From NCBI GenBank assembly GCA_965203175.1, contig OZ241867.1:704001-768000 (forward strand): DNA of 64,000 bases, written 5' to 3'. Position numbers and translations under genes: made by a program. The notes under the pieces were generated by a model, which ran no database searches, was not told the origin of the DNA, and worked only from the letters and a program-made list of their open reading frames with translations. This document shows positions 4,626 to 45,343 of this stretch, one piece after another. Numbering within the stretch: the first letter of the stretch is position 1; each line of letters starts with the position of its first letter. This DNA is from Candidatus Latescibacterota bacterium (GTDB taxonomy: Bacteria; Latescibacterota; UBA2968; UBA8231).

Positions 4626-5414
4626 ATGATTAATGATTCTTACAGTTCGGGAGCGAAGCACTACGACGCGGCATACAGCGTCAAAGAAGATTTGGTGGAC
4701 AGGGACTTTTATCTCGATCTAGCCAATGAGTATGGCGGACCGGTCCTCGAATTTGGCTGCGGCACAGGGAGAATCACCCTGCCGTTGGCGCGACAAGGTG
4801 TTGATGTCACGGGGATGGATGCTTCTCATTCCATGCTGGAGGTCTTGCGCGCCAAGCTCACCAAAGAAAGTGAATGCGTACGACGGAGAACACGAGTTAT
4901 AGAAGGAGATTTTCGCACCCATTATCTGGACGATCAATTTTCCTTGGTAGTAATCCCATTCAGACCCATGCAGCACATGTACACTGCGGAAGATCAACTG
5001 GCGGCCCTGCAAAACGCTAGGAAACACTTGGCCGAGGGTGGTATTCTCGCGTTTGACGTATTCAATCCCAATTTCGCCAAAATTCTAACGGGCGTCGGCG
5101 AAGAATACTTGGACCTGGAGTGGCCCGCGCAAGATGGGACGGATCGGATGGTCCGACGGTACTTTGTAAAGGACGAGATTGACTTGATCAACCTGAATTT
5201 CTCGGGCAGGTTCATCTTCCGATTGTGTGAGGGTGATAAAGTTCTGTCTGAGGAAGCACAGCCATTGAAGATGAGTTTCTATACGTATCCTCACCTCAAA
5301 GCTCTTTTCTACGCCGCAGGTCTTGAGAGTGTCGGAGAATTCGGATCATTTGATCGGAGACCAATCGGACCTGACGCGCCCGAAATGATATTCCTACTGA
5401 AGCGCCGGCAATAG
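4626..5414 (+). CDS. class I SAM-dependent methyltransferase
   Basis: VLEFGCGTGR, GMDAS and GGILAFD motifs. Confidence 0.9.
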   Translation: MINDSYSSGAKHYDAAYSVKEDLVDRDFYLDLANEYGGPVLEFGCGTGRITLPLARQGVDVTGMDASHSMLEVLRAKLTKESECVRRRTRVIEGDFRTHYLDDQFSLVVIPFRPMQHMYTAEDQLAALQNARKHLAEGGILAFDVFNPNFAKILTGVGEEYLDLEWPAQDGTDRMVRRYFVKDEIDLINLNFSGRFIFRLCEGDKVLSEEAQPLKMSFYTYPHLKALFYAAGLESVGEFGSFDRRPIGPDAPEMIFLLKRRQ

Positions 5415-29210: not shown

Positions 29211-29222
29211 GGGCGTTAGCAC

Positions 29223-30011
29223 TTATTTCACAGAATCGCCATACCGTAAACTCAACCACCAATCAGCGTGTGGCATCCCACTCTCGTGCGTTTTTTTCAC
29301 CAGTACATCGATATCTATCGGCACGCGACGCAACTCGATGCGAAGGCCCCTATCCTCCCATGCAATAACTCCATACTCTGCCCAAGGAGGATACTCCCTA
29401 TCGTGCAGATCACTCAATGGACGTTGAGAAACTCGGCGTATGCGCTCGTGCGCAGTAATAGGAGCACCAACACTTCCAGGATTGATTATCGTGCTATCTT
29501 CATGATAACGGATCATCTGCGTGTGCGTATGTCCTCCAGCCAATACCATAGCGCGATAACCAGACAGCATGCGTTCCATTTCCTCATCTGGAGTGGTTGA
29601 AACAATTGCATCTTCATTGGATTGTGGCGAACCGTGATAGCAAAGAAGACTGGTAGTCGCATCGAGGGGTATCTCGACCGTTGACTGGAACGTACGCATG
29701 TAGTCGAGATCGTCAGGTGATAGCTTACCGACATCCCAGGATCGAACTTCATTTCCTCGCTTGGCGTTCTTGCTCTTTCCTTCATCTGGATATGGGTTGA
29801 GACACCTCGTGTCCATGTTGCCCATGACGACCGGACAATTCAGCGTCTTCAATTGGGCAATGACCTCACCTGGTTGGGGGCCTCCGGAGACGACATCACC
29901 CAAGCACACAATGCGATCAATGTGTTCTGTTTTGAGATCGTTCAAGACAGTTTCTAATGCCACGAAATTCCCATGAATATCAGAGATGATGGCGATTCGC
30001 ATGCGCTTCAT
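29223..30011 (-). CDS. metallophosphoesterase
   Basis: DIHGN, GD, GNMD, HGS, GHTH and NPGSVG motifs. Confidence 0.9.
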   Translation of the reverse strand: MKRMRIAIISDIHGNFVALETVLNDLKTEHIDRIVCLGDVVSGGPQPGEVIAQLKTLNCPVVMGNMDTRCLNPYPDEGKSKNAKRGNEVRSWDVGKLSPDDLDYMRTFQSTVEIPLDATTSLLCYHGSPQSNEDAIVSTTPDEEMERMLSGYRAMVLAGGHTHTQMIRYHEDSTIINPGSVGAPITAHERIRRVSQRPLSDLHDREYPPWAEYGVIAWEDRGLRIELRRVPIDIDVLVKKTHESGMPHADWWLSLRYGDSVK

Positions 30012-30074
30012 ACCTCCATTGTAGTGAGAAAGATCATCCTCTTAACCTTGCACAGACCTGTCCGAATCCGCACG

Positions 30075-31217
30075 CTACTCTGTCCCTTCCCTTAATATCT
30101 CCAAATACCGCTCTCCATATCCCTCATAATCCAATCCCTCACTAAACGCCTTCCCCGTCTCGCTGCCATCCAACCGAGTCACTCCCCCCTCTTCAACCGG
30201 CTCAATCTGCGTATCCTCGTGCCACTCATTCCACGAAGTAACCATCAGCATTCGCCCCGTCGATTCATCCGCATACTTTACAGCCTGCGCCAGCATCGCC
30301 CGAAATAGCGATCCAAATTCGGCTTCTTCACTCAACTTCCGCGAGACCGCCTCATGTCCATTGCGCACACCTTTATCGTTAAATCCCGGCGTCGCAGCGG
30401 GTATAAACGCTGTCCCTTCAGCATGAGCCAGTTCTCGCCAACTCGCCTGCGCCGCATAATACCAATCCACTGCCGCCTGTCCCGCATAACCCTTTGCCCC
30501 CATACTGCCGTACACGTCGTAGTTCGTCACGGCATCCAGTAGCCCAATCGCCTCAGAAGACGTCGGCGGTTGTCCAAAAACCTCATCGCCGACGATGTAT
30601 ATATCGTGTCCCGCCTCTCTAGCCGTTGCGCGCATCGCCTCCACCACCTCAGTCAGCGTCCCATTGCGCGATAGTACCCGCGTCAAATAGACAAAGAGCA
30701 CTGGCCGTCCATCGATCCGCAGATAGTTGGGGTGGTCGAAATAGCGTTCGGCTATATAGACGATGTCCGGTGCGACGCGATTGAACACTGAAAAATCCCT
30801 TGTGCGCCCTGTAGTCTCATAAAACAGCGCAATCTGCATATCGTCTAATTCATCGTGCGGCAGAATATGCTGTAGCAGAGTCTGATCTTCGCGAGAATCG
30901 GGACCCCACCAACTCGCCACCCACAGCGATATATTGGCCTGTCGGCTCCACTTGAGATGCTGGGCGATCACCGCGGGATCGCGATCGTCGTACTCGCCCA
31001 GCATCGGCAACTGCGGCGGTATCAACTCTTTGCGCATATAGCGGCCGCCGTGAAAATCGCCGCTGTACCAGGGGTAATAATAGACGCCTACGGTATAAGG
31101 TGAATCCATTTGGTCTTTATCTGGACTACTCATAGGATCTTCGCCGTTACATGCATTGGGAAACACGAGGAGGATGCTGCATAAAACAGCCAGAAGGAAT
31201 GGCCTACTAAAAAACAT
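30075..31217 (-). CDS. GH99-like glycoside hydrolase, exported
   Basis: YYPWY, SWW, FYE and SWNEWHEDTQIEP motifs; N-terminal signal-like segment. The start is approximate. Confidence 0.75.
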   Translation of the reverse strand: MFFSRPFLLAVLCSILLVFPNACNGEDPMSSPDKDQMDSPYTVGVYYYPWYSGDFHGGRYMRKELIPPQLPMLGEYDDRDPAVIAQHLKWSRQANISLWVASWWGPDSREDQTLLQHILPHDELDDMQIALFYETTGRTRDFSVFNRVAPDIVYIAERYFDHPNYLRIDGRPVLFVYLTRVLSRNGTLTEVVEAMRATAREAGHDIYIVGDEVFGQPPTSSEAIGLLDAVTNYDVYGSMGAKGYAGQAAVDWYYAAQASWRELAHAEGTAFIPAATPGFNDKGVRNGHEAVSRKLSEEAEFGSLFRAMLAQAVKYADESTGRMLMVTSWNEWHEDTQIEPVEEGGVTRLDGSETGKAFSEGLDYEGYGERYLEILREGTE

Positions 31218-31770
31218 GGGTACGCTCAATCCACTTGTCCCGATCCAAGAGAAATACACACCGCTCGGGCAATATGCGGTCCGCAAATTCGCCTTTACCC
31301 GGTCCGGGCGGTATGCGCTCCGTCTCCTCGAAACCTAGCCGGTGGAGAAGCCGGACAGACCGTTTGTTTGCAATAACGCATCTGGCTTCAATCTCGTCTA
31401 GATCCAAATCTTCAAAACCTACCTGCAGGATGACCCGGATCGCCTCCGACGCAAAGCCCTGACCCCAATAAACGGGCGACAACTCGTAGCCGATGTCACC
31501 CCGCCGGCTCTCAATGCTTTCTGTGCGCACTCCGCAGTCACCGAGTAATACCCCATTTGAGCGGTCCGTGATGGCTAGCTGGAATTTGCACCTCGGATTT
31601 TCCTTAGACAGTGCGATGCACTTGTCTACAAAGCGGGCACACGCCTCTCTAGTGTAGGGAGGCCGGTAGTAGTATTCCAGATACCTTGGATCTCTCCTAA
31701 ACTCGGCGACGGCGTCCACGTCTTGTCTGGTGAACTCCCTCAGGAGCAGGCGTTCAGTCAGCTTCTCCAT
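31207..31770 (-). CDS. RimJ/RimL-type GNAT acetyltransferase
   Basis: TERLLLR, IGYEL..YWGQGFA and N.RS..LL.RLGF motifs. Confidence 0.88.
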   Translation of the reverse strand: MEKLTERLLLREFTRQDVDAVAEFRRDPRYLEYYYRPPYTREACARFVDKCIALSKENPRCKFQLAITDRSNGVLLGDCGVRTESIESRRGDIGYELSPVYWGQGFASEAIRVILQVGFEDLDLDEIEARCVIANKRSVRLLHRLGFEETERIPPGPGKGEFADRILPERCVFLLDRDKWIERTHVF

Positions 31771-31783
31771 TGCGGTTGGTGTT

Positions 31784-33217
31784 CTACTTGGAGTAGGGCT
31801 TCTGAAGGTCAGTACTGAGCGCGTGAGCCAGTTCCCGCAGCACATCGACCGCCATAAGCACGTCTTCCCTTCTACAGTCGAACTGCCCGACTTGGAAGCG
31901 GATGACAAACTGGCCCTCGTGGATTGTCTGCGTCAGGTAAATCCGGCCGTCGTCGTTGACCGCGCGGAGCAAGCGCTCGGTGGCGTCGTTGGCGTTCTCG
32001 CCATCGGGGGCATACTGGAATGTGAAGAGCGAAAGATGGCAGTTAGTCGTCAGACGAAAGCCGTCCAGCAATGCGATCGCCGCGGCGGCCTCCTCAGCCC
32101 AGGCAATGTGGTTCCGGATGCGCTGGCGGAGGTCTTCGAGACCGTGCGCGCGCAACAGGAACCAGAGCTTGAGAGCGCGGAACCGGCGTCCCAAGGGGAT
32201 CGTCCACTCGCTGTAATTGGTGATCTCGGTTTGGCCGAGGGTTTGCAGGTAATCTGGACGGACGCCGAGGGTGCGAACCTGCGGTTCTGGGTCCGCAAGA
32301 AACTGGATCGAGCAATCGAACTGCGCACCGAGCCACTTGTGGGGATTAAAGGCGATGCTGTCGGCTCCCTCGACGCCCTCCCACAACGCCCGTAGCTCAG
32401 GACAAATCATTGCAGAACCAGCCCACGCGGCATCGACATGAACGTAGAGATCGTGCTCCCGTGCCACTTCGATGGTCTGATGCACGCGGTCAGACGCGCC
32501 GATCGACGTGCCCCCAACACAAAGGACGACACCGGCCGGGAGGAAACCCGCCACGCGGTCCGCGTCGATCGCCCGGCGCAACGCCTCCGGATCGAGCGCC
32601 CAAGAACCATCGGTCGGGACTTTGACGAGATGCTGTTGGCCGATACCGGCGATTCGGATCGCCTTGTCAACCGACGAGTGGGTCTCCGGCGAGGCATAGA
32701 CCCGGACCTGTTTCTCCCCCACCATGCCAGAATCGATCCCGCGCCAGCCGAGCGCGCGTTCGCGCATCGTCAGTACGGCACAGACATTGGCCGACGTCCC
32801 CGAGTCTTGGATAACGCCTTGGAACCCCTCCGGTAGCCCAAGGGCCTGACGCATCCAATCGACCATCCGGGTCTCAATCTCCGTAGCGGCAGGAGAAGTC
32901 TGCCAGAGCATACACTGGGCCGCCATAACCGCCGTCAAATTCTCTGCGATCATCGAAACCGGCGCGGCGTTGGCGCTGAAGTACGCAAAGAAACGCCGGT
33001 GTTGCCAGTGCGTCATGCCGTCGGGTACGATGCGCTCAAAGTCAGCGAAGATCGTCTCCATATCCACCGGCTCTTCCGGCGGCGCTAACGGCAGCATCGC
33101 AGCGATCTCACCCGGTGCAGTCTGCGCCCGAACAGGCCGCTCATCGAGCGTGTCCAGGTACTCGGCACCCCACCGAGCAGCTCGCTCAGCCCAGCGAAAG
33201 TAGTCTTCTCGTTTCAT
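31784..33217 (-). CDS. aromatic-L-amino-acid decarboxylase (group II PLP)
   Basis: THWQH..FFAYF, SPAATE, HVDAAWAG, FNPHKW and LGRRFRALK motifs. Confidence 0.9.
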   Translation of the reverse strand: MKREDYFRWAERAARWGAEYLDTLDERPVRAQTAPGEIAAMLPLAPPEEPVDMETIFADFERIVPDGMTHWQHRRFFAYFSANAAPVSMIAENLTAVMAAQCMLWQTSPAATEIETRMVDWMRQALGLPEGFQGVIQDSGTSANVCAVLTMRERALGWRGIDSGMVGEKQVRVYASPETHSSVDKAIRIAGIGQQHLVKVPTDGSWALDPEALRRAIDADRVAGFLPAGVVLCVGGTSIGASDRVHQTIEVAREHDLYVHVDAAWAGSAMICPELRALWEGVEGADSIAFNPHKWLGAQFDCSIQFLADPEPQVRTLGVRPDYLQTLGQTEITNYSEWTIPLGRRFRALKLWFLLRAHGLEDLRQRIRNHIAWAEEAAAAIALLDGFRLTTNCHLSLFTFQYAPDGENANDATERLLRAVNDDGRIYLTQTIHEGQFVIRFQVGQFDCRREDVLMAVDVLRELAHALSTDLQKPYSK

Positions 33218-33250
33218 AAGACGGTCTGAATGAGATTGATAGTATCGCCT

Positions 33251-34177
33251 CTAAAGACCCTCAATCCGCCCAAATTCTTTTAACGCTTTTAGTATCTCAA
33301 CGGTCAAACAACTCTTCCAATGCAGTTCGGCTTGCTCCCAGACTTCTGGATACTGGCCATACCAGGACCAAGTAGGGGACCAAGAGCCATCTGAATTTTG
33401 ATGCTCAATATCAAAATCTAAATTCATATCTACTTCGCTCTTCAATGTCTCTGCTAGCAACGAGATGGGCGTAGCAGCTAACCAGAGCGGTCTGGCAGAG
33501 GGTTGCATCAATTCTTCCGGCGTATGAGCGACGACGGAGTGCGCTCTCTGAATTAGTATTTCCGCTAGCGTATCTTTCGCGGATTGGGGCAGGGCAGCCG
33601 TCTCAACCAGATGAACACAGCAAATAAAGTCGTACATGTTCATTTGATCTGATAATGTCTTTATATGCTCTATGACCTCTACCGTGAGCTGTTTAATCAG
33701 GTCTGTAGGTGCCAACTCGTGATGTTCATGTAGATAGCCCACGACCTCCGCACGAGGATTGGCCAGAAAATTGCCAAAAGTATCCGCCGTATTCTCAAAA
33801 TCCCACCACGGCGCATGGGGGTATTCATCCACCGCTTGCGGGACGATAGGCCATCTGCTCTGGGCCGAATCGTATTCAGCTAACAAATACTGGATTGCTT
33901 TCTGAACGATCTCATCATTACTCGTCGCTTTGACCTCTCTGAGAATGCGCAGCGCAATGGTCGTCGTGATAACGGATGAATCGGGCATTTGGATATCGGG
34001 TTCAAGGCCATTGCCGAAACCGCCATCCTGATTCTGATAGTTAGCAAGTTCGTCCAGGACCGCAGCTGGAGTTCCATCATCGAAATGATAAGATAGAAGC
34101 CGTCTTTCTAATTCCCGGCCCTGCTCCATCACGAAAGTCCTTGCTTTTTCGAATGAGTCACCAGTCAACAGCTTCAT
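33251..34177 (-). CDS. prenyltransferase/squalene-cyclase-repeat alpha-alpha toroid protein
   Basis: YQNQDGGFG and QNSDGSW repeats; HAPWW. Confidence 0.7.
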   Translation of the reverse strand: MKLLTGDSFEKARTFVMEQGRELERRLLSYHFDDGTPAAVLDELANYQNQDGGFGNGLEPDIQMPDSSVITTTIALRILREVKATSNDEIVQKAIQYLLAEYDSAQSRWPIVPQAVDEYPHAPWWDFENTADTFGNFLANPRAEVVGYLHEHHELAPTDLIKQLTVEVIEHIKTLSDQMNMYDFICCVHLVETAALPQSAKDTLAEILIQRAHSVVAHTPEELMQPSARPLWLAATPISLLAETLKSEVDMNLDFDIEHQNSDGSWSPTWSWYGQYPEVWEQAELHWKSCLTVEILKALKEFGRIEGL

Positions 34178-34216
34178 CTCTCTTAACTCCTACAAATAGA
34201 TAGTCTTGAGCATTGC

Positions 34217-34963
34217 TTATTTGAAATCCAAATACATAAAAGTACACACACCGCTGGGATGCACCTCAAATGTACCTCTAGAAAGTACTTCGTCGATTGC
34301 AGCCTTGGGATTAGTCAGGGGGAGCGGATTATGACCATTGAGAATAAGGTCTATATCGAACGAGTCGAGTCGTTCGTACCTACGGCGCAGTTCAGTGCGT
34401 GATGGCGTGCCCGTGGCTCGTAGGCGGATACCCTTTTCCTGCATCCAGTACGAAACATTGCGTCCCCCCATACCACCTTGCTCATTCTGGCCGTAAATGG
34501 TGTCGGCATTGATTAGTACTTTCTTGCCTTTGGGAGTCTGCCAATACAACCATATTTCGCCGTTCTCATCCCCTGATTCAATGGTCTGTATCCCACCGGG
34601 TAGTGGTTGGGCTGCACCATAGCGTGCATTGAGCTTACGACCATACTTCGTGGTTTTCTTAGCCGAGGGAGGACCATAGACCGGTGCTCTATAGCGTCTA
34701 GCGGCTTCAGAAATATGCCGCTCGTGCAAAGGGGAAAGACTGAGAATGGCAGCTACCCGACCAGCACGCCGCTTGAGTACCTTCAGCGCTTCGCCCTGTT
34801 GTGGGAGCACCGGGTCTGTGATAAGCGTACCTTCAGGCGTATGCAACATAAAAGACTGCTGTAAATCGCCATTTCCCCATGAAGTCCACCGCGTGATTTC
34901 AGGCTCTTCTGGGGAGCCGACTTCTACAGAAAAGCCGGTGCCATGTTTGATAACGTATTCCAT
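34217..34963 (-). CDS. divergent metallo-beta-lactamase-fold protein
   Basis: LITDP, LHERH, NADT and LNGHN pattern. Confidence 0.5.
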   Translation of the reverse strand: MEYVIKHGTGFSVEVGSPEEPEITRWTSWGNGDLQQSFMLHTPEGTLITDPVLPQQGEALKVLKRRAGRVAAILSLSPLHERHISEAARRYRAPVYGPPSAKKTTKYGRKLNARYGAAQPLPGGIQTIESGDENGEIWLYWQTPKGKKVLINADTIYGQNEQGGMGGRNVSYWMQEKGIRLRATGTPSRTELRRRYERLDSFDIDLILNGHNPLPLTNPKAAIDEVLSRGTFEVHPSGVCTFMYLDFK

Positions 34964-34971
34964 GTCTTCTC

Positions 34972-35676
34972 CTACAAATACGTTTGCGCCAACTCCAGAA
35001 ATTCCTCCCAGCTCCTAATCTCTGCATCAACAGGAATATCCGCAGGCGCTTGTTGTCGCCTGTTATACCAGATTGCACTCATATGGCACTGCTTCGCCCC
35101 CACCATATCGGTCTCCAACGTGTCTCCTACATACCATATCTCTGAAGGTGCCATGCCCAATCGGGTGGCCGCTGAGGTAAAAATCAGGGGATGGGGCTTT
35201 CTTATGCCATAATCGGCGCTAGAGATAACAAATTCAAAATAGTTGAGCAGTTCATGACGTTGAAGTTCCCAGGAGAGGAGCGTTCCAGACCCTGGATGGT
35301 TGCTTACTACCCCCATCCTCAAATTATGGGCAGATAAGGCGGTCAATACATCGGCAATGCCGGGCTCAGGAGAGAAAAGCATACATTCTTTCCAGAATTC
35401 CAGTTCGAGTACCTCCATGGGTTCACGAAAGGTGATGCCGAGTCGATCAAAGAGTAGTCGATTAAACTGATGATGCGTGAATTCGATGATTGAATTATCC
35501 GCAACAGCGACCTCACTATCGAGCCTTTTTGCTTCAGTCGTTACCTCTTCAGGTGATATACCTTTTCGATCCACTGCATATTCGAGCAGACGAGCGTTAC
35601 CTGCGATAGGATCGAATCTCATATTGCGTACGAGAGTATTTATGAAATCGAAGAGAATAGCCTGTGGCCTATTCAT
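34972..35676 (-). CDS. HAD-family hydrolase
   Basis: FDFINTL, VVSN, RKP and VGD...D motifs. Confidence 0.88.
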   Translation of the reverse strand: MNRPQAILFDFINTLVRNMRFDPIAGNARLLEYAVDRKGISPEEVTTEAKRLDSEVAVADNSIIEFTHHQFNRLLFDRLGITFREPMEVLELEFWKECMLFSPEPGIADVLTALSAHNLRMGVVSNHPGSGTLLSWELQRHELLNYFEFVISSADYGIRKPHPLIFTSAATRLGMAPSEIWYVGDTLETDMVGAKQCHMSAIWYNRRQQAPADIPVDAEIRSWEEFLELAQTYL

Positions 35677-35762
35677 CTATGTGCTCCATTGGGGTATCCA
35701 ATGTCGTGTAACTGATTGTACCCGAACTAGTTCTCCATGGACAGACAATCTCAGGCGACGCA

Positions 35763-36746
35763 TTAGGTATTGAGAGCAGGCCCCCAATATTTCCAGAGGT
35801 TCCGTGGCACGTCGTATCGCGTGAGCTCCCGGCCTGGATGCCCCGGCGGTAGAAAGCCTGTCGGGGTGTTGCCTACGTACTCGGGCGGTGACGGCTTCGG
35901 GGGCGACCATGGCGTGCCATCCTTGTCGGGAAACATGACCATGGGTGCCTGCTCGCGCATTTCCCTGTGGGAGTACCGTGCAAACTGCGCCACCCTCGGT
36001 TGCTTTGACCCCGCCGCATTAGCCGAGTTGACGTGCGTAGTGAGGCCATGGAGCAGCATTGCGTCGCCAGCTCGCCCCGTCATACATACCACCTCGCCCA
36101 CACTGGGGTCCCCCTCCAAGATCGCCCGGTGCCCACCGCTCCGCACGGGCTCCGTGAAGAGGTACGAGCCGTCGATTTGCTCGGGATGTTCAAGGAAGTA
36201 TCGGTGGTTCGCCAGGTGCGACCTCGGCCAATAGGCCGTGCCCCCGCCCGTGGGGCTGCTGACGTCCCAGAACAGCACGACGAAGAACGCCATGAACCCA
36301 CCGCCCCAGCCTGTCGCATACCCATCGAGGTGACCATCGGCAGGAGGTGCCCACTCCGTACCCTGAGCGCTCGGCAGGATCACCCGCGTCATTGGAGTCT
36401 GCGGCGTCCACGGCTGCCCCGCCGGATGGGTGGGGGCAAAAGCGCCGCCACCGATCTGCTCCACGATGGACTGCAGACTCGATAAATCGTACAGGTTGGG
36501 ACTGAGCTTAGGCCAACCATCCTCGGGTGTGTACCGCCCGGCAGGCCAGGTGTTGGGATCATCGAGGTCCACGCCGCCAGAGCAAGCGGCGCGCATCTGG
36601 TCCTGCCATCCGTTAAGCACATCAGGAGGTACCAATCCCGGAATAGCGAGTACCCCCTCTGCTTTGAACTCATCTAGCTGCGCCGGTGACAGCAGCATAC
36701 TCGGCTTGGGGTCGGGTCCGTAACTGTCTGACTTATTCATTATCAC
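35763..36746 (-). CDS. PhyH-family Fe/2OG dioxygenase
   Basis: GHLD, YWPRSH and AGDAMLLH...H motifs. Confidence 0.8.
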   Translation of the reverse strand: MIMNKSDSYGPDPKPSMLLSPAQLDEFKAEGVLAIPGLVPPDVLNGWQDQMRAACSGGVDLDDPNTWPAGRYTPEDGWPKLSPNLYDLSSLQSIVEQIGGGAFAPTHPAGQPWTPQTPMTRVILPSAQGTEWAPPADGHLDGYATGWGGGFMAFFVVLFWDVSSPTGGGTAYWPRSHLANHRYFLEHPEQIDGSYLFTEPVRSGGHRAILEGDPSVGEVVCMTGRAGDAMLLHGLTTHVNSANAAGSKQPRVAQFARYSHREMREQAPMVMFPDKDGTPWSPPKPSPPEYVGNTPTGFLPPGHPGRELTRYDVPRNLWKYWGPALNT

Positions 36747-36752
36747 AGCCTT

Positions 36753-37520
36753 GTTAAGAAAAACACGTCCAATCTAATTGTTTGAGACCTGGCTTTAGAT
36801 CAAACAAGGATCGGATAACCAGTTCCGCACTCACATCCACGTGGCCCATGCGGTCTATGAGCACAGGAATCATTTTCGCTCGTTTCGCGCCCACAGTGTC
36901 CCACCTTGGATTATCTCCGATAAACAGGCACTCTTCTGGTTTGCATCCGAAATGATCCAATGCGCGGCGAAACATAGGTTGGGCAGGCTTCCGCCAACCC
37001 ACATCTGAACAAAAGATAGCCACCTCGCATCGCGTCGAAAGGCCATGTCGCCGCAGTTCTTCAAACCAAGGCTCACTCGGTGAACCCCAGGGACAGTTCG
37101 ATAGGATTCCTACGCGGTAGCCATCCGCCAGGTACGCATCCAGAGCCGGAAGGGTGTCTTCATAGATCTTGGCAATAGAAAAGATAGGCGCGAGGAAGGC
37201 ACGACAGATCGGCAGCCACTCTTCCTCCGAAACGCAAGGTGCGACCGCAAAGATACGACCAAGCCTCTTGTGGAGTGGACGAACGCGACTGTTTTTGGCT
37301 TCGTAGTTCTCAGCCGCGACACCGCGCTCGATCTCAGAATCCGAAGGCAAATCGTGTCCCGAACGCTCCAGTGCCTCTTTGGCTGCGTGAATCCCTGCCC
37401 GCAGCAAAGGAGGAAACTCTTCCCTGCGATAGTACTGGACAAGGGTGTCGCCAAGGTCAAACAGAAGAACTGGTCTCAAACCTGAAACTCCTACTCGTCT
37501 CTTAAAGTATTTCTCTTAAC
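36753..37520 (-). mobile_element. relic integron gene cassette carrying the HAD gene
   Basis: On the gene strand it begins GTTAAGA (37520-37514) and has the complementary TCTTAAC (36759-36753) overlapping the TAA stop. The rest of its attC is missing. Confidence 0.55.
36754..37479 (-). CDS. HAD-family hydrolase (integron-cassette-like)
   Basis: FDLGDTL, LSN, RKP and IGDN..WD motifs; TTG start with AGGAG RBS. Confidence 0.88.
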   Translation of the reverse strand: MRPVLLFDLGDTLVQYYRREEFPPLLRAGIHAAKEALERSGHDLPSDSEIERGVAAENYEAKNSRVRPLHKRLGRIFAVAPCVSEEEWLPICRAFLAPIFSIAKIYEDTLPALDAYLADGYRVGILSNCPWGSPSEPWFEELRRHGLSTRCEVAIFCSDVGWRKPAQPMFRRALDHFGCKPEECLFIGDNPRWDTVGAKRAKMIPVLIDRMGHVDVSAELVIRSLFDLKPGLKQLDWTCFS

Positions 37521-37601
37521 GTTTCAGGGGTTGCGAACCCCGAAGGGATTGCCCGAAAAGCCAAGCGGCGAATGCGGTGTAGTGTGAAGCCAATGTTATT
37601 G
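37514..37601 (-). mobile_element. attC-like recombination site (degenerate or hybrid)
   Basis: Minus strand CAATAAC-ATTGGCTTCAC...CCCTTCGGG...GCAACCCC-TGAAAC-GTTAAGA, 88 bp, starting 14 nt after a stop. The AAC/GTT ends are present but the inner L boxes do not pair. Confidence 0.55.
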
Positions 37602-37615
37602 GAAGTGGAATAGGG

Positions 37616-38218
37616 TCAATCTAGACGATGACATCCTTGGCTGTCATACAGGACGAACAGCGCGGTTTCTTTGTCGTAGGACGCTGCTTTCTCCCAAGCA
37701 TGGTATATAGATAGCTGTTTTCTCCATAGATTGTCGAAAAATATCAAGACAAAAAGCAGTGTCGAAGCAGAGTCAACAGCATCTATGGCTCCAATATATG
37801 CTTGGACTCCGGCGGTCTTAAAAGCTTGAGCCATATGCTCTAAGCCTCCCTCACAGCACGTATTTACAACGAGCCGATCTGGCAGCCGGGCTTTCTGCGC
37901 GATATACTCCGAAGGTAGACTACCATCTCTCAGCATACTTGTGTCTATTTCATCAGCGAAATCGCCAAAGACAAAGCCCGTTTCATCGCCGTGGCCGCAA
38001 ATAACCAGATCTCGCGGCATTTCACTAGGGTCAGACAGCACACTTAGAAAGTCGCCAGGGCATCCTACCCCGTAATAACGGGTCACGGCATCTAAATGAT
38101 ACACGAAGTCATCAATTTTTTTAGCTTCACCACTACTACCCATAATGTCGATAATGGCTATAGGGTGACATGGGATATGAAACTGCGTTTCTACGGGAGT
38201 CCAGAAAGAAAAAGACAT
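37616..38218 (-). CDS. stand-alone caspase/CHAT-like fold protein
   Basis: LVICGHG and VVNTCCEGG candidate His/Cys dyad, plus AYIG. ATG at 38218 has a GAGGT RBS. Confidence 0.55.
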   Translation of the reverse strand: MSFSFWTPVETQFHIPCHPIAIIDIMGSSGEAKKIDDFVYHLDAVTRYYGVGCPGDFLSVLSDPSEMPRDLVICGHGDETGFVFGDFADEIDTSMLRDGSLPSEYIAQKARLPDRLVVNTCCEGGLEHMAQAFKTAGVQAYIGAIDAVDSASTLLFVLIFFDNLWRKQLSIYHAWEKAASYDKETALFVLYDSQGCHRLD

Positions 38219-38305
38219 ATCTACCTCATGTGATATTGAGATATAACGATTGCAAAATCCGATATACGGCGGTGCGAAGGCCATAATGCCTAGGGACAAC
38301 CTATC

Positions 38306-39310
38306 TCAAGCGACGCGATACCTCTCCACCACCTCCATATCAACCTTGATCCCCAACCCCGACCCTGTCGGCACGGCAAAGTGCCCCTTCTCCAGCGCCA
38401 ACCCCTCGGCCACAACATCGGCCTCCCGCGTAAAAGGCAACTCGTCGCAAGGCAACGTGGCATTGGGCAGCGTCGCCTGCAAATGCACCGAGTAAGCCGC
38501 CATCACCCCAGTACACAACCCGCCCATCTGAATCCAGCAGGGCACATCCGCAGCCTCCGCCAGCGCCGCCGCCTTCCGCACCACCATCGCCGAACCGCTC
38601 AAGTTCACGTAGTCAATGCACTCGGCCCTGAGCGCCGCCAGCACGCCGGACGGCGCTCCCAAGTGCAGGGCGATAGGGATGTGGGTCTTCTCGCGCAGGA
38701 TGCGGTACCATTCGAGGTTGTTTTTGAGGATGGGATCTTCAAAAACCGATACCGTGCCAAAAGGCTCCAACTCGCTCGCCAAGCGCGCACCAGTGGGCAG
38801 CAGAGCGAATTCAGTATTGGGATCAACGCCGACCGTGTAGTCGGCACCCACCGCTTCTTTCATCAGCCGCACCGTCTCGACAATATTCCACGAGCGCGCC
38901 TTGAGCTTATGGTTGCTAAAACCCAGCCCGGCCCCTATTTCCGCCTCGGCCGCAGTCTCTTCTGGCGTCATGGGGCACGACCAGTACGACACCGGCACCT
39001 TATCGCGCACCTGCGCCCCAAAGAAGCGGTGCAGCGGAATGCCGTAGGCTTGACCCGCAATGTCGAGCAGCGCACAGGTGAAAGCATCGGGACGATTGTA
39101 CGGATCCAACGCCAACGGATCCTGCCCCACAAGAGCGTCGGCTTGCTCCTGACCAGCAGGCTTTTTGCTGAGGAACTCGCCCCAGCCCTCCAAGCCCTCA
39201 TCCGTCTGCACGCGGCAGAGGGTAATGTCATAGATCTTGGGATAGTAGCGGGCGATGGCCGGGATCGGCGGAATCTCAACTTCGTACAGCTCTACTTGGG
39301 TGATTTTCAC
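38306..39310 (-). CDS. mandelate racemase/muconate lactonizing enzyme family
   Basis: TDEGLEGWGE, KLK, VDPN, FEDP and P.GSGLG motifs. Confidence 0.88.
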   Translation of the reverse strand: MKITQVELYEVEIPPIPAIARYYPKIYDITLCRVQTDEGLEGWGEFLSKKPAGQEQADALVGQDPLALDPYNRPDAFTCALLDIAGQAYGIPLHRFFGAQVRDKVPVSYWSCPMTPEETAAEAEIGAGLGFSNHKLKARSWNIVETVRLMKEAVGADYTVGVDPNTEFALLPTGARLASELEPFGTVSVFEDPILKNNLEWYRILREKTHIPIALHLGAPSGVLAALRAECIDYVNLSGSAMVVRKAAALAEAADVPCWIQMGGLCTGVMAAYSVHLQATLPNATLPCDELPFTREADVVAEGLALEKGHFAVPTGSGLGIKVDMEVVERYRVA

Positions 39311-39339
39311 AGGAGGCCTCCTCTGCCATAAGGTTTCCG

Positions 39340-39368
39340 TTGCGCGTCGTTTGTCGAAGAGCTAGAAT
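39340..39368 (+). promoter_or_regulatory. sigma70-like promoter
   Basis: TTGCGC-N17-TAGAAT upstream of ATG 39436. Confidence 0.45.
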
Positions 39369-39435
39369 GATACCAAATTGGCGAGGGATCACAAAGGGAT
39401 CTATCGATCCCGCCGAAAACCGCGAGGAGGACCTC

Positions 39436-40962
39436 ATGGACGACAAGACGATGACCAACGAAGAAAACTACCGCTTCGACGTGGCGGGGTATATGATTGT
39501 CCCCGGCGTCCTGACGGCAGCCGAACTGAACGCCTGCAATCAGGCCCTGGACCAGCTAGCGTCTAACAACGGGCCGCTGCGCTGGACGTCGCCCGTTTGC
39601 AATCCCCTGCGCGCCCTGCGCGAGCATCCAGTGCTAATGCAGTATCTGGAGCAGATTTGCGGCGAGGGCTTCCGGGTCGACGAATCGCCGCGACTCGTCG
39701 AATCATGTACCGAAGCGACAGATCTGTCGGGAGGCGACGAGTGGGTGGATTGGTCGCGGGCGTACCGCCAGTACAACGGGCATCGCTTCTGTCAGGGAGT
39801 GCGGGCCTTCTGGGCGCTGGCGGACGTGGGCGCAGAAGACGGGGGGTTGGTCGTAGTACGAGCCAGCCACAACAGCACAGTGCCAGCCCCGCAAGACCTA
39901 GTGGACGGAACCGACCCGATGGGACTCGTCGAGCAGCCGGTCTTGCAGGCGGGCGACCTCCTGCTCTGCACCGACTCGCTGATGCGCGGCGTGCGGCCTT
40001 GGCAGGGCGCGGGGCCGCAACGCCTGCTCGAATGCGGGTACATTAGCACTGGCGTGCGGCCGGGGGCGGCGTCCGAAATCCACGGCGAAGACAGCGCGTT
40101 GCCCGAGTGGGCCGGCGAGCTGACCGATATTGAGCGCGCCGTCTTGCACAATCCCAACCGCCCGTACCCACCGCCAGTCGTGCATTCGGACGGCGAAAAG
40201 GTTTGGCTAGCGGAGGAACCAGGAGTTTTCCATCCCTCGGTCTACATCCGCGACCCAGATTCCGAGATTGACGAAAAGGAATTTTTCCACTGGGATCTGT
40301 GCGGCCACCTCGTTTTGCGGGGCGTGATGGACGAGGAATGGCTGACCGCGGCCAACGAAGCCATCGACAAAAATCCCGACCGGATCAGCCACGGCGGATC
40401 GGCTGCCGGCGATTCAACGCCTTTGGCCGGTACTGGAGTCGGCCGCTCGTCCATGGGCAACCCGTGGGCGTTGCCCGCGCCATACGGCGAGCCGTTCCAG
40501 CGCATGATCGCCAATCCAGCGCTCGTCCAGCGCCTGAACTGGATCATGGGCAGCGGCTTCGAGTGCATGATGTGCAGCGGCTTCCTGTCCGGGAAAGGGT
40601 CGTCCGGGCACTTTCTCCACTCGCCCGCCACGCCAGCCAAGGTGGGCAATCACTACCGCCAACAGAACGGCCGCGTGTACGCCGAATCCCTCAACGTGGC
40701 TTGGCAATTGCGCGATGTGACGCGGGCCGATGGGGGCTTTGTCTGCGTGCCCGGCTCGCACAAAACCGCCTATCCCATGCCCGACGGCATCCGCACCTGC
40801 GATAATGAAATGGGCCTAGTTAAACACATAGAGATGAAGGCGGGCGACGTGCTGCTGTTCCTCGCGTCGGCGCAGGCGCACGGGGCGTATCCGTGGACGG
40901 GAGAACAGAATCGGCGGATGATATTTTTCCAGTACCGGTCGCGCAATATGTACGCGCCTTGA
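39436..40962 (+). CDS. tandem double-domain PhyH-family protein
   Basis: Two PhyH-like repeats (FDVAGY...RASH...AGDLL; WDLCGH...VPGSHK...AGDVL..AHG); GAGGAGG RBS. Confidence 0.85.
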   Translation: MDDKTMTNEENYRFDVAGYMIVPGVLTAAELNACNQALDQLASNNGPLRWTSPVCNPLRALREHPVLMQYLEQICGEGFRVDESPRLVESCTEATDLSGGDEWVDWSRAYRQYNGHRFCQGVRAFWALADVGAEDGGLVVVRASHNSTVPAPQDLVDGTDPMGLVEQPVLQAGDLLLCTDSLMRGVRPWQGAGPQRLLECGYISTGVRPGAASEIHGEDSALPEWAGELTDIERAVLHNPNRPYPPPVVHSDGEKVWLAEEPGVFHPSVYIRDPDSEIDEKEFFHWDLCGHLVLRGVMDEEWLTAANEAIDKNPDRISHGGSAAGDSTPLAGTGVGRSSMGNPWALPAPYGEPFQRMIANPALVQRLNWIMGSGFECMMCSGFLSGKGSSGHFLHSPATPAKVGNHYRQQNGRVYAESLNVAWQLRDVTRADGGFVCVPGSHKTAYPMPDGIRTCDNEMGLVKHIEMKAGDVLLFLASAQAHGAYPWTGEQNRRMIFFQYRSRNMYAP

Positions 40963-41079
40963 CGAAGCATAGAGACTCGAATTGGAATTCGGCGGTAACA
41001 ACATCACCGACACCGTCGAATTCCGCGACTACTTTGCCTAATCGCGGTTGAATGCAATCGAGAATTACCCTAAGATCGA

Positions 41080-41105
41080 GGAACCTCTCGGCGAGTCAGG
41101 GCGTC
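41080..41105 (+). promoter_or_regulatory. putative ECF-sigma promoter
   Basis: GGAACC-N16-CGTC upstream of the exported thioredoxin. Confidence 0.4.
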
Positions 41106-41163
41106 TTTCGACGGACTGACCTCAACCCGACCACACCACAACTTTTTTAAATAGGAGCAAATC

Positions 41164-41607
41164 ATGCTGAAGTACGTCCTCACCCTCACCGCTCTAGCCC
41201 TTTTACTAGCCCCGCCCCCCACTCTCGCCGGCACTGTCCCAGTAGAAGGCGAAGGCGACCCAGCCTTGTATGTAGTCAAAGTCCACGCCGATTGGTGCGG
41301 CTCCTGCACAACCCTTGAGCCAATCCTCCAAGAAGTCCAAGCCGGCGTGGCCGATCATCCCGTCCTCTTCGTCCAATTGGACGTCACCGACTCAACGCTG
41401 ACATCCCAAGCCCGCCTGCTTGCCGCGGCCCTCGACGTAGAAGACCACTTCAAGGCCAACAACAAGACCGGCCTCGTCCTGCTCATCAACGCCCAAGACC
41501 ACACCCTGCTGGAAACGGTGACCAAGCAAAACTCCGCCGCTGAGATCGTCGGCAAAATCAAAACCCACCTTGCCGCACAAGCCAAGCAAGAAGAGGCTGC
41601 CGAGTAG
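41164..41607 (+). CDS. exported thioredoxin-like protein
   Basis: Signal peptide, HADWCGSC motif and AGGAG RBS. Confidence 0.85.
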   Translation: MLKYVLTLTALALLLAPPPTLAGTVPVEGEGDPALYVVKVHADWCGSCTTLEPILQEVQAGVADHPVLFVQLDVTDSTLTSQARLLAAALDVEDHFKANNKTGLVLLINAQDHTLLETVTKQNSAAEIVGKIKTHLAAQAKQEEAAE

Positions 41608-41608
41608 G

Positions 41609-42037
41609 CTAACCGTTCAGCTTGTATTCGTCCACCAAGGCGCGCAACCGCGCTAAAAACGGGTCGATATCCTGCGGTTGATTGGCCGCGTTGTGGAGGA
41701 CTATATCCTCACCCGTCTCCGCGTGGAACACCGTCGCGGCCGGCGATAGGCTCACCTTTTCGACCTCGGCCCACGCCAGCGTCTGCCGACCAAACAGGCC
41801 CTCTTCAACGGTCACGCCTTCCGGTCCCAGCCAGACCAAGCGCCGATGGAGGCGGTGGACGAAGAACGCCGCCGCGCAAAACGCCGCGATCCCGCCGCCG
41901 AGCACTGCGAGTCCATACGCGAAGCCGCCGCGCTGGAACGCAATGGTGCTCAATATCAACTGGCAGACGCCCAATAGGGCGAAAACTAGGCGCTGGCTGG
42001 CACCGGGACTGGTGGATAAATCGAACTGTTCAGCCAT
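41609..42037 (-). CDS. hypothetical membrane protein (2 TM plus bacterial PH-like domain)
   Basis: Two hydrophobic segments followed by ...LAWAEVEKV; lies just downstream of the dehydratase. Confidence 0.55.
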   Translation of the reverse strand: MAEQFDLSTSPGASQRLVFALLGVCQLILSTIAFQRGGFAYGLAVLGGGIAAFCAAAFFVHRLHRRLVWLGPEGVTVEEGLFGRQTLAWAEVEKVSLSPAATVFHAETGEDIVLHNAANQPQDIDPFLARLRALVDEYKLNG

Positions 42038-42040
42038 ACC

Positions 42041-43201
42041 TCATCGCGGTGCGATCCAGTCTTCGTCTATTTCCATGCCAAAACCCGGCGCGTCCGAAGG
42101 AACCAAGCGCCCATCTTGAGGCACGGCCATGCCCGGTATGGCGGGTACTTCGTCTAGGGGAATGCCCGGCGCCGAGCCAAGCCAGTACTCGGCCATCGGC
42201 GACTCGGGAAAGGCAAAGGCAAAGTGTTGTCCGAAGATACTGTTGCCTCCGCCGTGGGGGATGGTGACGAGGCCGGTGGCTTCGGCAATGTAGTAGATCT
42301 TGACCGCCTCGGAGAGACCGCCGCACCAATTGAGGTCCGGTTGCAGCACATCGACGCAGCGGTGTTCCACCAGCTGGCGGAAGGCCTGACGACCGTGGTG
42401 ATCCTCGCCGGTGGCAATGGGCACGTATGGAGCGGCGCGCTTGAGCGCGATGTGACCTTCGAGATCCGTGGGAATCAGCGGTTCCTCAATCCAGCGCATC
42501 TGATAGGGCCTGAGCCGCTCGGCGACTTGGACGGCGTATTCGACGTTGTAGGACATGACCGCGTTGAGCATCAGCTCGCAGTCCGGGCCAATGGTCTCGC
42601 GCGCTTGAGCGATTTTGTCTTCGAGGCGGTTGAGCCCTTCCTGCCCCTCGCGGTAGTGAATCGGATTGGTAACCTTGAAGGCGCTAAACCCCAGTTCGAG
42701 ACCCCAGTCGAGGTCGTCGCCAGTAGCGTAGAGTTCGAGATGGTCGCGGCAGGGGCCGCCGAGCAAGCGGTACACGGGCAGACCCAGCAACTTGCCCTTG
42801 AGGTCCCAAAGCGCCAGATCAATCCCGCTTTGAGCAACGGCTGCGGTGCCAGCATGACCGAGGCGCTGAGCGGCGCGCCACATCAGGTCGTTGAGGAATT
42901 CCGTAGCCAGACAATCGCGGCCCATCAGTAAGGGCGCGAAAACCTGCTCGACGATGGCGGCAACCGGCGCGCCAAAGGAGCAGTTGCCCAAACCCCAAGT
43001 ACCGTCTTCAGCCGTGATCTGTACCCAGACGGGACCGCCACCCATGCCCGGCATCTGGCCGGGTAGGCGCGAAAATTCCGGATACTTGTTGATCGGCAGC
43101 GAACGCGGCGCACTCTGATTCCAAGAGGGGCGACGGGGCGCTGTTTTGGGCGGGTTGTGCGGAATCTTGAGATCAACTACGCGGATGGATTGTATTTGCA
43201 C
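42041..43201 (-). CDS. L-rhamnonate dehydratase-like enolase-superfamily enzyme
   Basis: SGIDLALWDLKGK, YATG, WIEEPL, ATGEDH, QPD..WCGG and IPH motifs. Confidence 0.85.
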   Translation of the reverse strand: MQIQSIRVVDLKIPHNPPKTAPRRPSWNQSAPRSLPINKYPEFSRLPGQMPGMGGGPVWVQITAEDGTWGLGNCSFGAPVAAIVEQVFAPLLMGRDCLATEFLNDLMWRAAQRLGHAGTAAVAQSGIDLALWDLKGKLLGLPVYRLLGGPCRDHLELYATGDDLDWGLELGFSAFKVTNPIHYREGQEGLNRLEDKIAQARETIGPDCELMLNAVMSYNVEYAVQVAERLRPYQMRWIEEPLIPTDLEGHIALKRAAPYVPIATGEDHHGRQAFRQLVEHRCVDVLQPDLNWCGGLSEAVKIYYIAEATGLVTIPHGGGNSIFGQHFAFAFPESPMAEYWLGSAPGIPLDEVPAIPGMAVPQDGRLVPSDAPGFGMEIDEDWIAPR

Positions 43202-43258
43202 GTCTAAAACCTTCTCAAATCTACATCGGGCGTTTTTCGCTACGTAAAAGGGGGATAC

Positions 43259-43287
43259 ATTATATCGCCGGGCGTTGGTAGCAGCAA
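43259..43287 (-). promoter_or_regulatory. sigma70-like promoter for the dehydratase
   Basis: Minus strand TTGCTG-N17-TATAAT. Confidence 0.55.
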
Positions 43288-43309
43288 GGTTGGCAGCGCG
43301 GTCAGGCCA

Positions 43310-44437
43310 TCAAAAGGAGTATTGTAGTTGCATCGAGTAAGTGTTGTCGGCGTAGCTCTGGATGGGGTCGTTCGAATCGTTGGTCGCAAACGCGTATTCC
43401 AGCCGCGCCGCAAGATTGTCGCGGAGATCCTGCTTAAAGCCGAAGCGCAACAGGGTGAGGTTGTCGCGCCGTTTGGAGCCGGTCCCAGGCACGATCCAAT
43501 CCTGGTACAACTTGAAATGATGGCGCGCAGCAAGGCTCGCGCTGGAACGCGGCGCGAGTCGCCAGATGAAAAAAGACCCTATGCGGTGGTTGGCGAAGTT
43601 GAAATCGACATCGTCCTCGTCGCCATCGTGATGGCCGAATTCACCCCTTTGCTCAGGCTCGCGAGAAAGGGGTTCGTGGCGCGGGAGTTCGCGGGAGGCT
43701 AGATCGATTTCGAACTGATATTTCAAATTCAGCAACACTCGCCCCAAGGCCATGCCCTCAAACCCGAGGCTAGCGGTCTGGCGAATCCCGCCCACGTTCT
43801 CGTTGAGTTCAGATGTAATGATTCTCGGGTCGATAACGCCCCGGTACGCGCGCACCTGATAGCCAGCGGAAACATGTGCAATCGCGCTGAGCTGCCGTCT
43901 GAGCCCGCCTTCGACCATGACACTGCTATACGTACTGCCTTCGTTGTTGGGAAAGTACTTGTTCCGCAGCTCGGCCCCGAACCGGGACGACCACGACGGG
44001 TTCCACCGTATCTGGAGTTGACCACTGATATCTTGCTTGAAGTACTCGTTGATGCGGTCATTGGGTTGGTGCCGCAGGCCGAGGTTGGCGACGGTTAGGA
44101 GCGTGGCATCGCCGGAAAGCCTGCGGTGCCAAAGACCTGACAGCAGGTGATCGTAGCGATTCTTCTCGGTTACGTCGGCAAAGCGACGCGGGGCCATCTC
44201 ATAGCGCACGGCGATGCGCGTACGAGGATCAAGCGCGGCCCTGACATGGACCCCTGCCCATATATACGCGGCAAAATCCCGTTGTTCGCCCAAGTCCTTC
44301 GGCACCTGCAAGACATTGTCTTCGTACTGGTAGCGGCAGTCAAAAAAGGGCTTGATCCGCAACGAAGACTCGGCGAAAACTAGGTACGGGGTGCTCAGCG
44401 CGAGCAACCATATCACAGCTACAATTCTCAATGACAC
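43310..44437 (-). CDS. outer-membrane beta-barrel protein with His/acidic loop
   Basis: Signal peptide, alternating amphipathic strands, C-terminal LQYSF and loop GEFGHHDGDEDD. Confidence 0.7.
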   Translation of the reverse strand: MSLRIVAVIWLLALSTPYLVFAESSLRIKPFFDCRYQYEDNVLQVPKDLGEQRDFAAYIWAGVHVRAALDPRTRIAVRYEMAPRRFADVTEKNRYDHLLSGLWHRRLSGDATLLTVANLGLRHQPNDRINEYFKQDISGQLQIRWNPSWSSRFGAELRNKYFPNNEGSTYSSVMVEGGLRRQLSAIAHVSAGYQVRAYRGVIDPRIITSELNENVGGIRQTASLGFEGMALGRVLLNLKYQFEIDLASRELPRHEPLSREPEQRGEFGHHDGDEDDVDFNFANHRIGSFFIWRLAPRSSASLAARHHFKLYQDWIVPGTGSKRRDNLTLLRFGFKQDLRDNLAARLEYAFATNDSNDPIQSYADNTYSMQLQYSF

Positions 44438-44449
44438 GTGGGGATACCG

Positions 44450-45343
44450 TCACTTTCCTTGGAGCATATTCTCGAGTTCCCGGGCGAGTTGTATCGCTTT
44501 CTCACCGTGGATTTTTTCTTTGGCGTACCAGCTCTCCCGTTTGGCGCGCCAAATTTCCAGCGCCGATTCCGCATCCGCAATCTGTCCTTCCAACTCGGCG
44601 ATATCGAGGCTGCGGTCGAGATCAAACTCGTCTTCTTCCCCGCGGCGAATGTCGCGGAGCAACTCTAGCATATTGCGCCGCAAATCGAGTGCTTTACTGG
44701 TTTCGCGGATCTGCCGGTCGAGCTCTTCGATTTTGCTCCGTATAATATCCTGTTGGTCTTGCAGCACGGCCAATTTCTGCTGGATCTCATCGGGGCCGTC
44801 GGTTTGCGCCGGGGCGACATCCAACGACAACAGCAACTCGCTCGACTCTCTGGCCATTTGCCCCCGGTAGGTTTCTGCTTCTTCCTGAAGTTTTAGCACC
44901 TCGGCAAGGGTCCGGGTCTTGGTCTTGGCGTCTTTGGCGACGCGGGCTTCCCCAGAAAGCCGCTCAATCTCGTCATTCAGCATGCCCACGAGCGTGCGTT
45001 GCTTGGCGACCGATTCCTCGGTGAGCGCATAGATCTGGTTGTCGAGCGCTTGGATCCGGTCCGATAATTCCCGGGACGCCTGTAGGTCGTCCTGCAACTG
45101 TCGCTCAAGCAGTCGGCTGCCGCCTTGTTGCAGGTCTTGTTTGGCCGTGCGGATCCTATCGGTCAACTGCTTGTTTTCGCGCAGCAGCTTGTTGCTCTCC
45201 GCCGAGATGCCGGCGACCTGTTCGGCGAGTTGTTCAATCTGTATTCTCAAGTTTTGTAGAGTTAGCTCCTGCGTAAACGCCGCTGGCACCGCCCCGATTG
45301 AGATGGCGCAAAACAGCAGGAGATACCGCCAGCTAAAAAGCAT
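44450..45343 (-). CDS. exported coiled-coil protein
   Basis: Signal peptide followed by heptad-rich Q/E/L/R helices. Confidence 0.75.
   Translation of the reverse strand: MLFSWRYLLLFCAISIGAVPAAFTQELTLQNLRIQIEQLAEQVAGISAESNKLLRENKQLTDRIRTAKQDLQQGGSRLLERQLQDDLQASRELSDRIQALDNQIYALTEESVAKQRTLVGMLNDEIERLSGEARVAKDAKTKTRTLAEVLKLQEEAETYRGQMARESSELLLSLDVAPAQTDGPDEIQQKLAVLQDQQDIIRSKIEELDRQIRETSKALDLRRNMLELLRDIRRGEEDEFDLDRSLDIAELEGQIADAESALEIWRAKRESWYAKEKIHGEKAIQLARELENMLQGK

Follow-up and report, generated by a model that had tools for sequence, protein, structure and literature searches.

A HAD hydrolase gene in a Latescibacterota chromosome, very likely an integron cassette fixed with both recombination sites disabled

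Results

The HAD gene, its neighbors and its boundaries

The window analyzed here is a stretch of 64,000 nt from the single-contig, 6.58-Mb genome of a Candidatus Latescibacterota bacterium (hereafter G000). At about 29.2-39.3 kb, it includes a tightly packed block of co-oriented minus-strand genes for a metallophosphoesterase, a GH99-like protein, a PLP-dependent decarboxylase, two unknown proteins, a second HAD protein (34972-35676), a PhyH-like protein, the HAD hydrolase considered here, a protein designated fam11 and an enolase-superfamily protein. This block does not resemble a cassette array. The HAD gene itself (36754..37479, minus strand), the putative cargo of a fossil cassette, is an intact 241-codon ORF (241 aa) read from a TTG start at 37479, with an AGGAG ribosome-binding site at 37492-37488, 8 nt before the start. 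Its product belongs to subfamily IA of the HAD superfamily hydrolases, with matches above the curated cut-offs of PF00702 (51.5 bits, cut-off 26.4), TIGR01509 (34.1 bits, cut-off 29.4) and TIGR01549 (32.7 bits, cut-off 23.3) along with matches to PF13242 and PF13419, and profile searches against Pfam and NCBIfam returned no equivalog-level match. The first HAD motif (residues 8-12, window 37440-37460, minus strand) reads D-L-G-D-T rather than the usual DxDxT, which makes the substrate class of the protein uncertain; the same motif occurs in one translated orthologue.

Upstream, fam11 (37616..38218, minus strand) is present in only 2 of 76 genomes of the order and has no Pfam or NCBIfam match. 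Its start is probably the ATG at 38218, as judged from the alignment with the relative G021, and not the TTG at 38299, which leaves a spacer of ~90 nt after the enolase-like gene. Downstream, the PhyH-like gene (35763..36740, minus strand; weak PhyH match, E 6.9e-4) abuts the HAD gene: its ATG, set at 36740 by orthologue alignment, lies 13 nt past the HAD stop. At locus L071 and in G021, this PhyH-like gene is a separate unit placed after a mini-attC, and the order of such modules varies among relatives.

Both ends of the HAD gene carry short motifs that a sequence-only reading of this DNA had taken as the marks of an integron cassette, and every element it described is present. The heptamer GTTAAGA (37514..37520, minus strand) lies 34 nt before the TTG start and would be the R' core at the 5' boundary of the cassette, with the crossover at G/TT. 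At the other end, a 12-nt stump (36748..36759, minus strand) would be what is left of the cassette's own attC: the R'' motif TCTTAAC (36753-36759 on the plus strand) overlaps the TAA stop (36754-36756) and continues with AAGGC down to 36748, shortly before the next gene.

Taken alone, these motifs are weak evidence and unremarkable. GTTAAGA occurs five times in the window against 3.23 expected, a count reached or exceeded in 24 of 100 shuffles, and the 141-nt intergenic stretch at 37480-37620 folds as single-stranded DNA no better than shuffled sequence (z = 0.02 and -0.21 for the two strands). A BLAST search of this spacer against its own genome found itself and one 39-nt match at 85% identity, and an Rfam search of positions 33000-41500 (E <= 5) gave three chance-level matches only. 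It is only through comparison with relatives that the 7-mer inverted repeat exceeds chance.

A clade-specific family of attC-type repeats

In the relative G040, which belongs to another taxonomic family of the class, the HAD gene is part of a series of ~20 small genes with a common orientation, and the repeats between them read nnnTAAC...GGCAACC-loop-GGTTCGCAA...GAAAC-GTTAnnn. Across 12 of these repeats, TAAC and GTTA are invariant (12/12), sequence conservation is considerable and internal hairpins are conserved; RNAalifold predicted an 11-pair stem just inside the cores with compensatory changes in 9 of the 11 pairs. A bulge in the 5' arm (column 11 of the 12-repeat alignment) is seen and is not conserved. 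Two clade-specific covariance models, distinct from the attC model of IntegronFinder, were built from such repeats: R1, trained on the 12 G040 repeats only and comprising four R-box pairs and the 11-pair stem, and R2, trained on 47 sites including the attC of L071. Run on 79.6 kb of G040 with a cut-off of E <= 1, R1 retrieved 27 sites, of which 15 were outside the training set and none was on the strand opposite to the genes; at least 23 of them, with E < 0.02, are spread over about 41 kb.

The pairing of the two arms is maintained across the family. In the 47-site alignment from six genomes, which was fitted to the model, 90.9% of the cells are paired (vs. 74.5% in shuffles and 27-40% with slid partners), 114 cells are changed on both sides, and the covariation score is 0.430 (vs. 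0.154 in shuffles and at most 0.094 with slid partners). By helix, pairing reaches 97.3% in the R-box over 46 distinct sites, and 82.9% and 89.6% in the L-stem helices.

The repeats further obey the cassette rule, i.e., the start of a site is complementary to the sequence that follows the previous site. Of 53 listed sites, 45 were usable (the other eight, with AAC or GTT not within 12 nt of their ends, were dropped), and these gave 34 consecutive pairs spaced by less than 3 kb. When the 6 nt that precede TAAC are compared with the 6 nt that follow GTTA in the previous site, 4.62 of 6 positions are complementary on average, vs. 2.56 of 6 with the 3' flank of the same site and 2.61 when pairs are drawn at random; the value is greater in 29 pairs, smaller in two and tied in three (sign test, p = 4.6e-7). 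Such complementarity with the previous site is expected from G/TT recombination of circular units made of a gene and its attC, and other ways of spreading repeats would not give it. Inverse cores, L'' and L' arms held together by structure, one co-oriented site 3' of each ORF and the cassette rule are thus combined in this family, which spans two taxonomic families of the class (f4, with G040, and f1, with the window's genus).

A strict scan for RYYYAAC...GTTRRRY (at least 6/7 complementarity, with end pairing) returned only palindromes located inside genes and none of the real sites, because the nnnTAAC/GTTAnnn cores are looser than the textbook consensus. Reading the GGGGTT...AACCCC hairpin as a terminator was likewise set aside, as no T-run and no terminator-like site is found on the gene strand.

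The HAD gene moves as a unit bounded by full attCs

Orthologues of the HAD gene were found at 86-95% identity in 7 of the 40 relatives searched, and in three other Candidatus Latescibacterota genomes an 84-91% identical gene is flanked by full repeats of ~80-90 nt that belong to one family. The cassette origin proposed by the sequence-only reading is borne out by loci L070, L072 and L076, where full attCs stand on both sides of the gene. The preceding site ends at locus position 3966 in all three, 34 nt before the HAD start (R1 scores of 76.5, 56.0 and 67.6 bits, respectively), and a site ending at this same distance is also present in L077, L071 and G040. A full attC also comes after these homologues, at the stop or close to it, as that reading had asked to be checked: the site starts on the stop codon itself in L070 (60.8 bits) and L076 (61.6 bits), and 23 nt later, past a small duplication, in L072 (46.8 bits). 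This duplication (L072 4690-4745) repeats ~23 nt in tandem where the HAD gene ends, and the attC start is moved from 4721 to 4744.

The leader sequence GTTAAG(A/C)G(A)AAT follows six different upstream attCs (L070, L072, L076, L077, L071 and L074), always 34 nt before the start. Since the upstream sites differ by genome and the same sequence comes next, this leader travels with the HAD gene; overall, the sequence after G/TT stays with the downstream gene in seven contexts. The gene's own attC starts with TCTCTTAAC, the complement of this leader. On the bottom strand, the native attCs of the HAD gene show the expected fold, a closed R/L stem that encloses two hairpins (-23.7 and -21.2 kcal/mol). 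Across the loci of close homologues (n = 14), R1 found 37 matches, all on the gene strand. At L070, L076 and L072, the HAD gene is thus organized as a gene cassette, i.e., a single ORF with a short TTRRRY-type leader and its own attC, of which only the 5' boundary and the 12-nt attC stump are left in the window.

Five congeners share the cluster of the window at 92-95% nucleotide identity with a different order of the middle genes. The HAD gene precedes the PhyH-like gene or follows the second HAD gene, and the rest of the gene content between fam7 and the enolase-like gene, the two conserved anchors, varies as well; nine further co-oriented attC matches are associated with the variable genes of the relatives. 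Breakpoints of homology coincide with the two ends of the HAD gene (near 36752 and at 37494-37510), a single gene that shifts position among genomes 93-95% identical. G019 and G040 carry it in a wholly different context.

Both sites of the cassette are damaged in the window

Downstream of the HAD gene, the window keeps TCTTAACAAGGCTG and then lacks 72-73 nt relative to L071, L067 and G021, which confirms that one attC is truncated as had been read from the window itself. The missing stretch corresponds to the rest of a 46-nt mini-attC and the leader of the next unit. The 12-nt stump aligns to the first 12-14 nt of both the full attC (L070, L076) and the 46-nt mini-attC (L071, L067). Across genomes, the site after the HAD gene measures 83-84 nt (L070 and L076), 69 nt (G012), 46 nt (G021, L071 and G002) and 12 nt in the window.

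Upstream, the stop codon of fam11 is followed by an 88-nt element with intact TAAC and GTTA cores (37514..37601, minus strand), noted earlier for two halves that do not pair. R1 was trained on another genome, and in the 64,000 nt of the window it matches this element alone, from one end of the model to the other (27.0 bits, E 0.0014); a second search of 27000-45000 with filters off likewise gave no other match below E = 1. R2 scores it at 34.7 bits (E 1.2e-5), a value inflated by the presence in the training set of the L071 attC, which shares the 3' arm. A 27-bit match would not stand alone at the scale of the whole genome, and the element is absent from the R1 matches at E <= 0.1 in G000, which number at least 11 among 150 of 6693 candidates scored.

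As for its structure, the R-box pairs are all standard (4/4) and only 4 of the 11 L-stem pairs are, the other seven being non-standard. The predicted bottom-strand minimum free energy is -11.4 kcal/mol, about half that of the two native attCs above; per nt, it amounts to -0.13 vs. a family mean of -0.231 (sd 0.064). With arms that do not pair, the folded bottom-strand substrate of a functional site cannot form, and in terms of these models the element appears to be a relic of the attC family and not a working site.

The two arms also have different affinities. The 3' 40 nt are identical at 38 of 40 positions to the attC that precedes the same gene at L071, and the 5' arm is about half identical to it, with the switch at the conserved central CTTGGC. 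G021 shares fam11 and lacks the element, leaving a clean 89-nt gap. These affinities speak for a chimeric site. The other proposed parent, the native attC of fam11, was not found in the two genomes of the order (of 76) that have this gene, and the metagenome relatives of fam11 are only 40-43% identical. This comparison gives good support to a hybrid origin, short of proof, and local divergence or gene conversion of the 5' arm may be another route to the same arrangement.

Integrases and other sites of the family

No intact integron integrase was found in the window's genome, where the best match to TIGR02249 reaches 84.4 bits (cut-off 265), and this genome holds no complete integron, i.e., an intI with the IntI-specific insert next to an attI and an array. 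A 93-aa ORF (G000:C1:1293790-1293981; L002 1453-1734, minus strand), ~550 kb from the HAD locus, covers no more than the first 64 positions of the integron-integrase model (78.5 bits), and a fragment of an IS-type transposase lies close to it; from the sequence of this ORF, we take it to be the N-terminal remnant of a true intI. True IntI is present in 9 of the 76 genomes of the order and in none of the window's genus, in which G015 has a split copy only. Neither R1 nor R2 found any match in 158,770 nt around the true IntI loci of family members, so no tie between the attC family and a canonical IntI was found there. The arrays at these loci carry shorter, classical-looking TAAC...GTTA sites. 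One of them, L057 (G046:C3:186000-205900), is a canonical integron from a family member: its intI scores 366.7 bits, above the cut-off, and is divergent from a co-oriented array of short TAAC...GTTA palindromes of a sequence family other than that of the HAD-cassette attCs.

A short tyrosine recombinase of 270-278 aa is encoded within 1-2 kb of the first attC in the arrays that carry the HAD cassette (L028 1171-1983 in G040, L070 1075-1911 in G092). Its best family matches are the integron-integrase model (181-206 bits in two pieces, cut-off 265) and XerA-type, and it is without the IntI-specific insert. In G040 and G092 it is oriented differently with respect to the array, and both copies look frameshifted. 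This enzyme may not accompany the arrays in general: at E <= 1e-40 it was found in just one of 31 genomes of the genus, and it is absent from that of the window.

G000 carries other members of the same attC family, in two integrase-less arrays (C1:6229230-6235905 and C1:2002380-2005068, both on the plus strand) and as single sites (C1:3564890-3564983 and C1:1431133-1431202).

Discussion

A probable cassette turned into a chromosomal gene

We consider it very likely (a probability of roughly 0.85) that the HAD gene is an integron cassette that became fixed in a Latescibacterota chromosome and whose two recombination sites are both disabled. The sequence-only reading is largely supported in this respect, and neither of the two outcomes it had named as speaking against it is what we found: a clade-specific model of attC type does match, and homologues are cassette-borne.

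In the history that we propose, the HAD cassette would once have been part of an array bounded by the single clade-specific attC family described above, with its TAAC...GTTA cores, its pair of internal hairpins and an L''/L' stem that covaries. A tyrosine recombinase of the integron type, cutting at G/TT, would have moved the unit "TTAAGAG...gene...TCTTAAC...attC...G" between arrays and genomes, and the cassette now occupies a variable slot between conserved genes of the co-oriented cluster. There, a deletion of 72-73 nt has cut its own attC down to R'' and 5 nt and fused it to the next gene. In the mosaic, the 3' arm would derive from the attC that precedes the HAD cassette elsewhere, and the 5' arm from another site. 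Integron integrases exchange strands only at the R' core, and the mosaic can thus not be an integrase product; homologous recombination, deletion or slippage at the conserved centers of two neighboring attCs, with loss of the intervening DNA, would be its most likely cause. That the genes are locked in place, as proposed from the window, fits a site whose arms do not pair, another that is truncated and a genome in which no intact intI was found, from which we infer that the HAD gene is now immobile. It is probably read through as part of the operon-like cluster.

Several other explanations were weighed against this history. The one that departs from it least holds that an integrase inserted one or a few cassettes at a secondary GTT site (attG-type) of an existing operon, with no array ever decaying there. 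It agrees with the gene order of five relatives, in which the decarboxylase, fam6, fam7, the enolase-like gene and the large PhyH gene keep their order and only the middle varies, and passages of 10.1101/2022.09.11.507474 describe integrase-driven insertion outside att sites as well as isolated cassettes (SALINs). We nonetheless think it unlikely, given that the attC before the HAD gene is that of another unit, the one preceding it, and that the same slot holds 3-9 variable genes and several co-oriented attC matches in relatives; both facts imply that at least a small array existed, which an insertion at a secondary site could still have seeded.

Far less probable is that the repeats belong to another structured intergenic family (REP- or MITE-like elements, or structures at transcript ends) and are not attCs. 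One could invoke here the absence of a canonical IntI beside any array examined, the lack of model matches around true IntI loci, and the considerable sequence conservation and conserved internal hairpins of the repeats. However, the spread of REP or MITE elements would not make a site complementary to the previous site rather than to its own flank (29 of 34 pairs), and it leaves unexplained both why the sequence after G/TT travels with the gene in seven contexts and why sites start on stop codons. The lack of a terminator-like T-run on the gene strand and of any Rfam match beyond chance level in 33000-41500 also speaks against this explanation. As for a fortuitous 7-bp inverted repeat next to unrelated hairpins in an ordinary spacer, this is what the unenriched heptamer and the shuffle-like folding of the spacer would suggest if the window were considered by itself; it is already refuted by a model trained on another genome that finds only 37514-37601 in the window and by orthologues that have full attC sites at exactly the same two positions, and we give it next to no weight.

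Comparison with known systems

Clusters of attC sites without an integrase (CALIN) and single sites (SALIN) are described in passages of PMC4889954 and 10.1101/2022.09.11.507474. The locus belongs to this kind, as an attC-type site stands by a cassette-like ORF, intI is lacking in its vicinity, and the genome, in which no intact copy was found, also holds integrase-less arrays in the manner of CALINs. It is unusual in the extent of site decay and in the intermediates preserved among its relatives. Unlike in SALINs and CALINs, the single site is here a non-pairing mosaic and the gene's own site is only 12 nt long, so that a standard attC search might report nothing; and unlike a SALIN, the HAD cassette does not stand alone but is embedded in a conserved and tightly packed cluster.

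Sedentary chromosomal integrons, such as those with the VCR arrays of Vibrio, have arrays with homogeneous attC sites. The long run of small, unrelated and co-oriented genes in G040, each followed by a repeat of one family, is similar to these. In contrast to sedentary integrons, no canonical IntI heads the arrays examined here, and the attC family spans two taxonomic families yet was not found beside the true IntI of the window's own family. At the level of the site itself, the inverse AAC/GTT cores, the imperfect palindrome, the G/TT crossover and the complementarity of R'' to the cassette start are those of a classical attC (59-base element), whereas the cores are nnnTAAC/GTTAnnn instead of RYYYAAC/GTTRRRY, and two conserved internal hairpins form a three-way junction in the predicted fold.

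This locus and its relatives would offer a base-by-base natural series of a mobile cassette losing its sites and becoming an ordinary chromosomal gene, and relics of such kind would escape standard integron searches. They also show that a candidate phylum has a distinct attC family and cassette arrays that lack an integrase; a full-text search under the name "Latescibacter" alone gave no paper that, by its title or abstract, deals with integrons of this phylum. It is tempting, if rather doubtful, to speculate further that the variable slot reflects operon building by an integron-type system, in which tailoring enzymes (the two HADs, the PhyH-like dioxygenase and others) would be plugged in as cassettes, shuffled between the species of the genus and hard-wired stepwise through attC erosion. 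The recombinase of such a system might be the short IntI/Xer-like enzyme without the IntI-specific insert found beside the G040 and G092 arrays.

Other candidate relics in the window

Three further places in the window may hold relics of the same kind. Past the PhyH-like gene, a degenerate spacer (35703..35765, minus strand) ends in GTTACACGAC, which is the conserved 5' boundary of the second HAD gene, and in G012 (L073) GTTACACGAG and a leader come after a genuine attC of the HAD cassette. Although neither R1 nor R2 matches this spacer, its sequence suggests that it is probably another relic attC. The junction between the enolase-superfamily gene and fam11 (38238..38282, minus strand) reads GGCCTTCGCACCGCC...CGTTATATCTC, and the module junctions of L021, L022 and L025 show a similar string; this could be a further relic, though the evidence is weak, and R1 and R2 do not match there either.

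At the other end of the window, positions 3563-3647 (plus strand) match R2 with 16.1 bits (E 0.33) and look like a second relic of the attC family, with an R' core mutated to GGTA. This site starts on the stop codon of the ORF at 2825-3568 and ends just before the ORF at 3654-4535, within a series of co-oriented and unrelated small enzymes (PhyH, cupin, fructosamine kinase, alpha/beta hydrolase, methyltransferases and APH). The GC content around it swings from 45% to 65%, and the run may be another fossil array.
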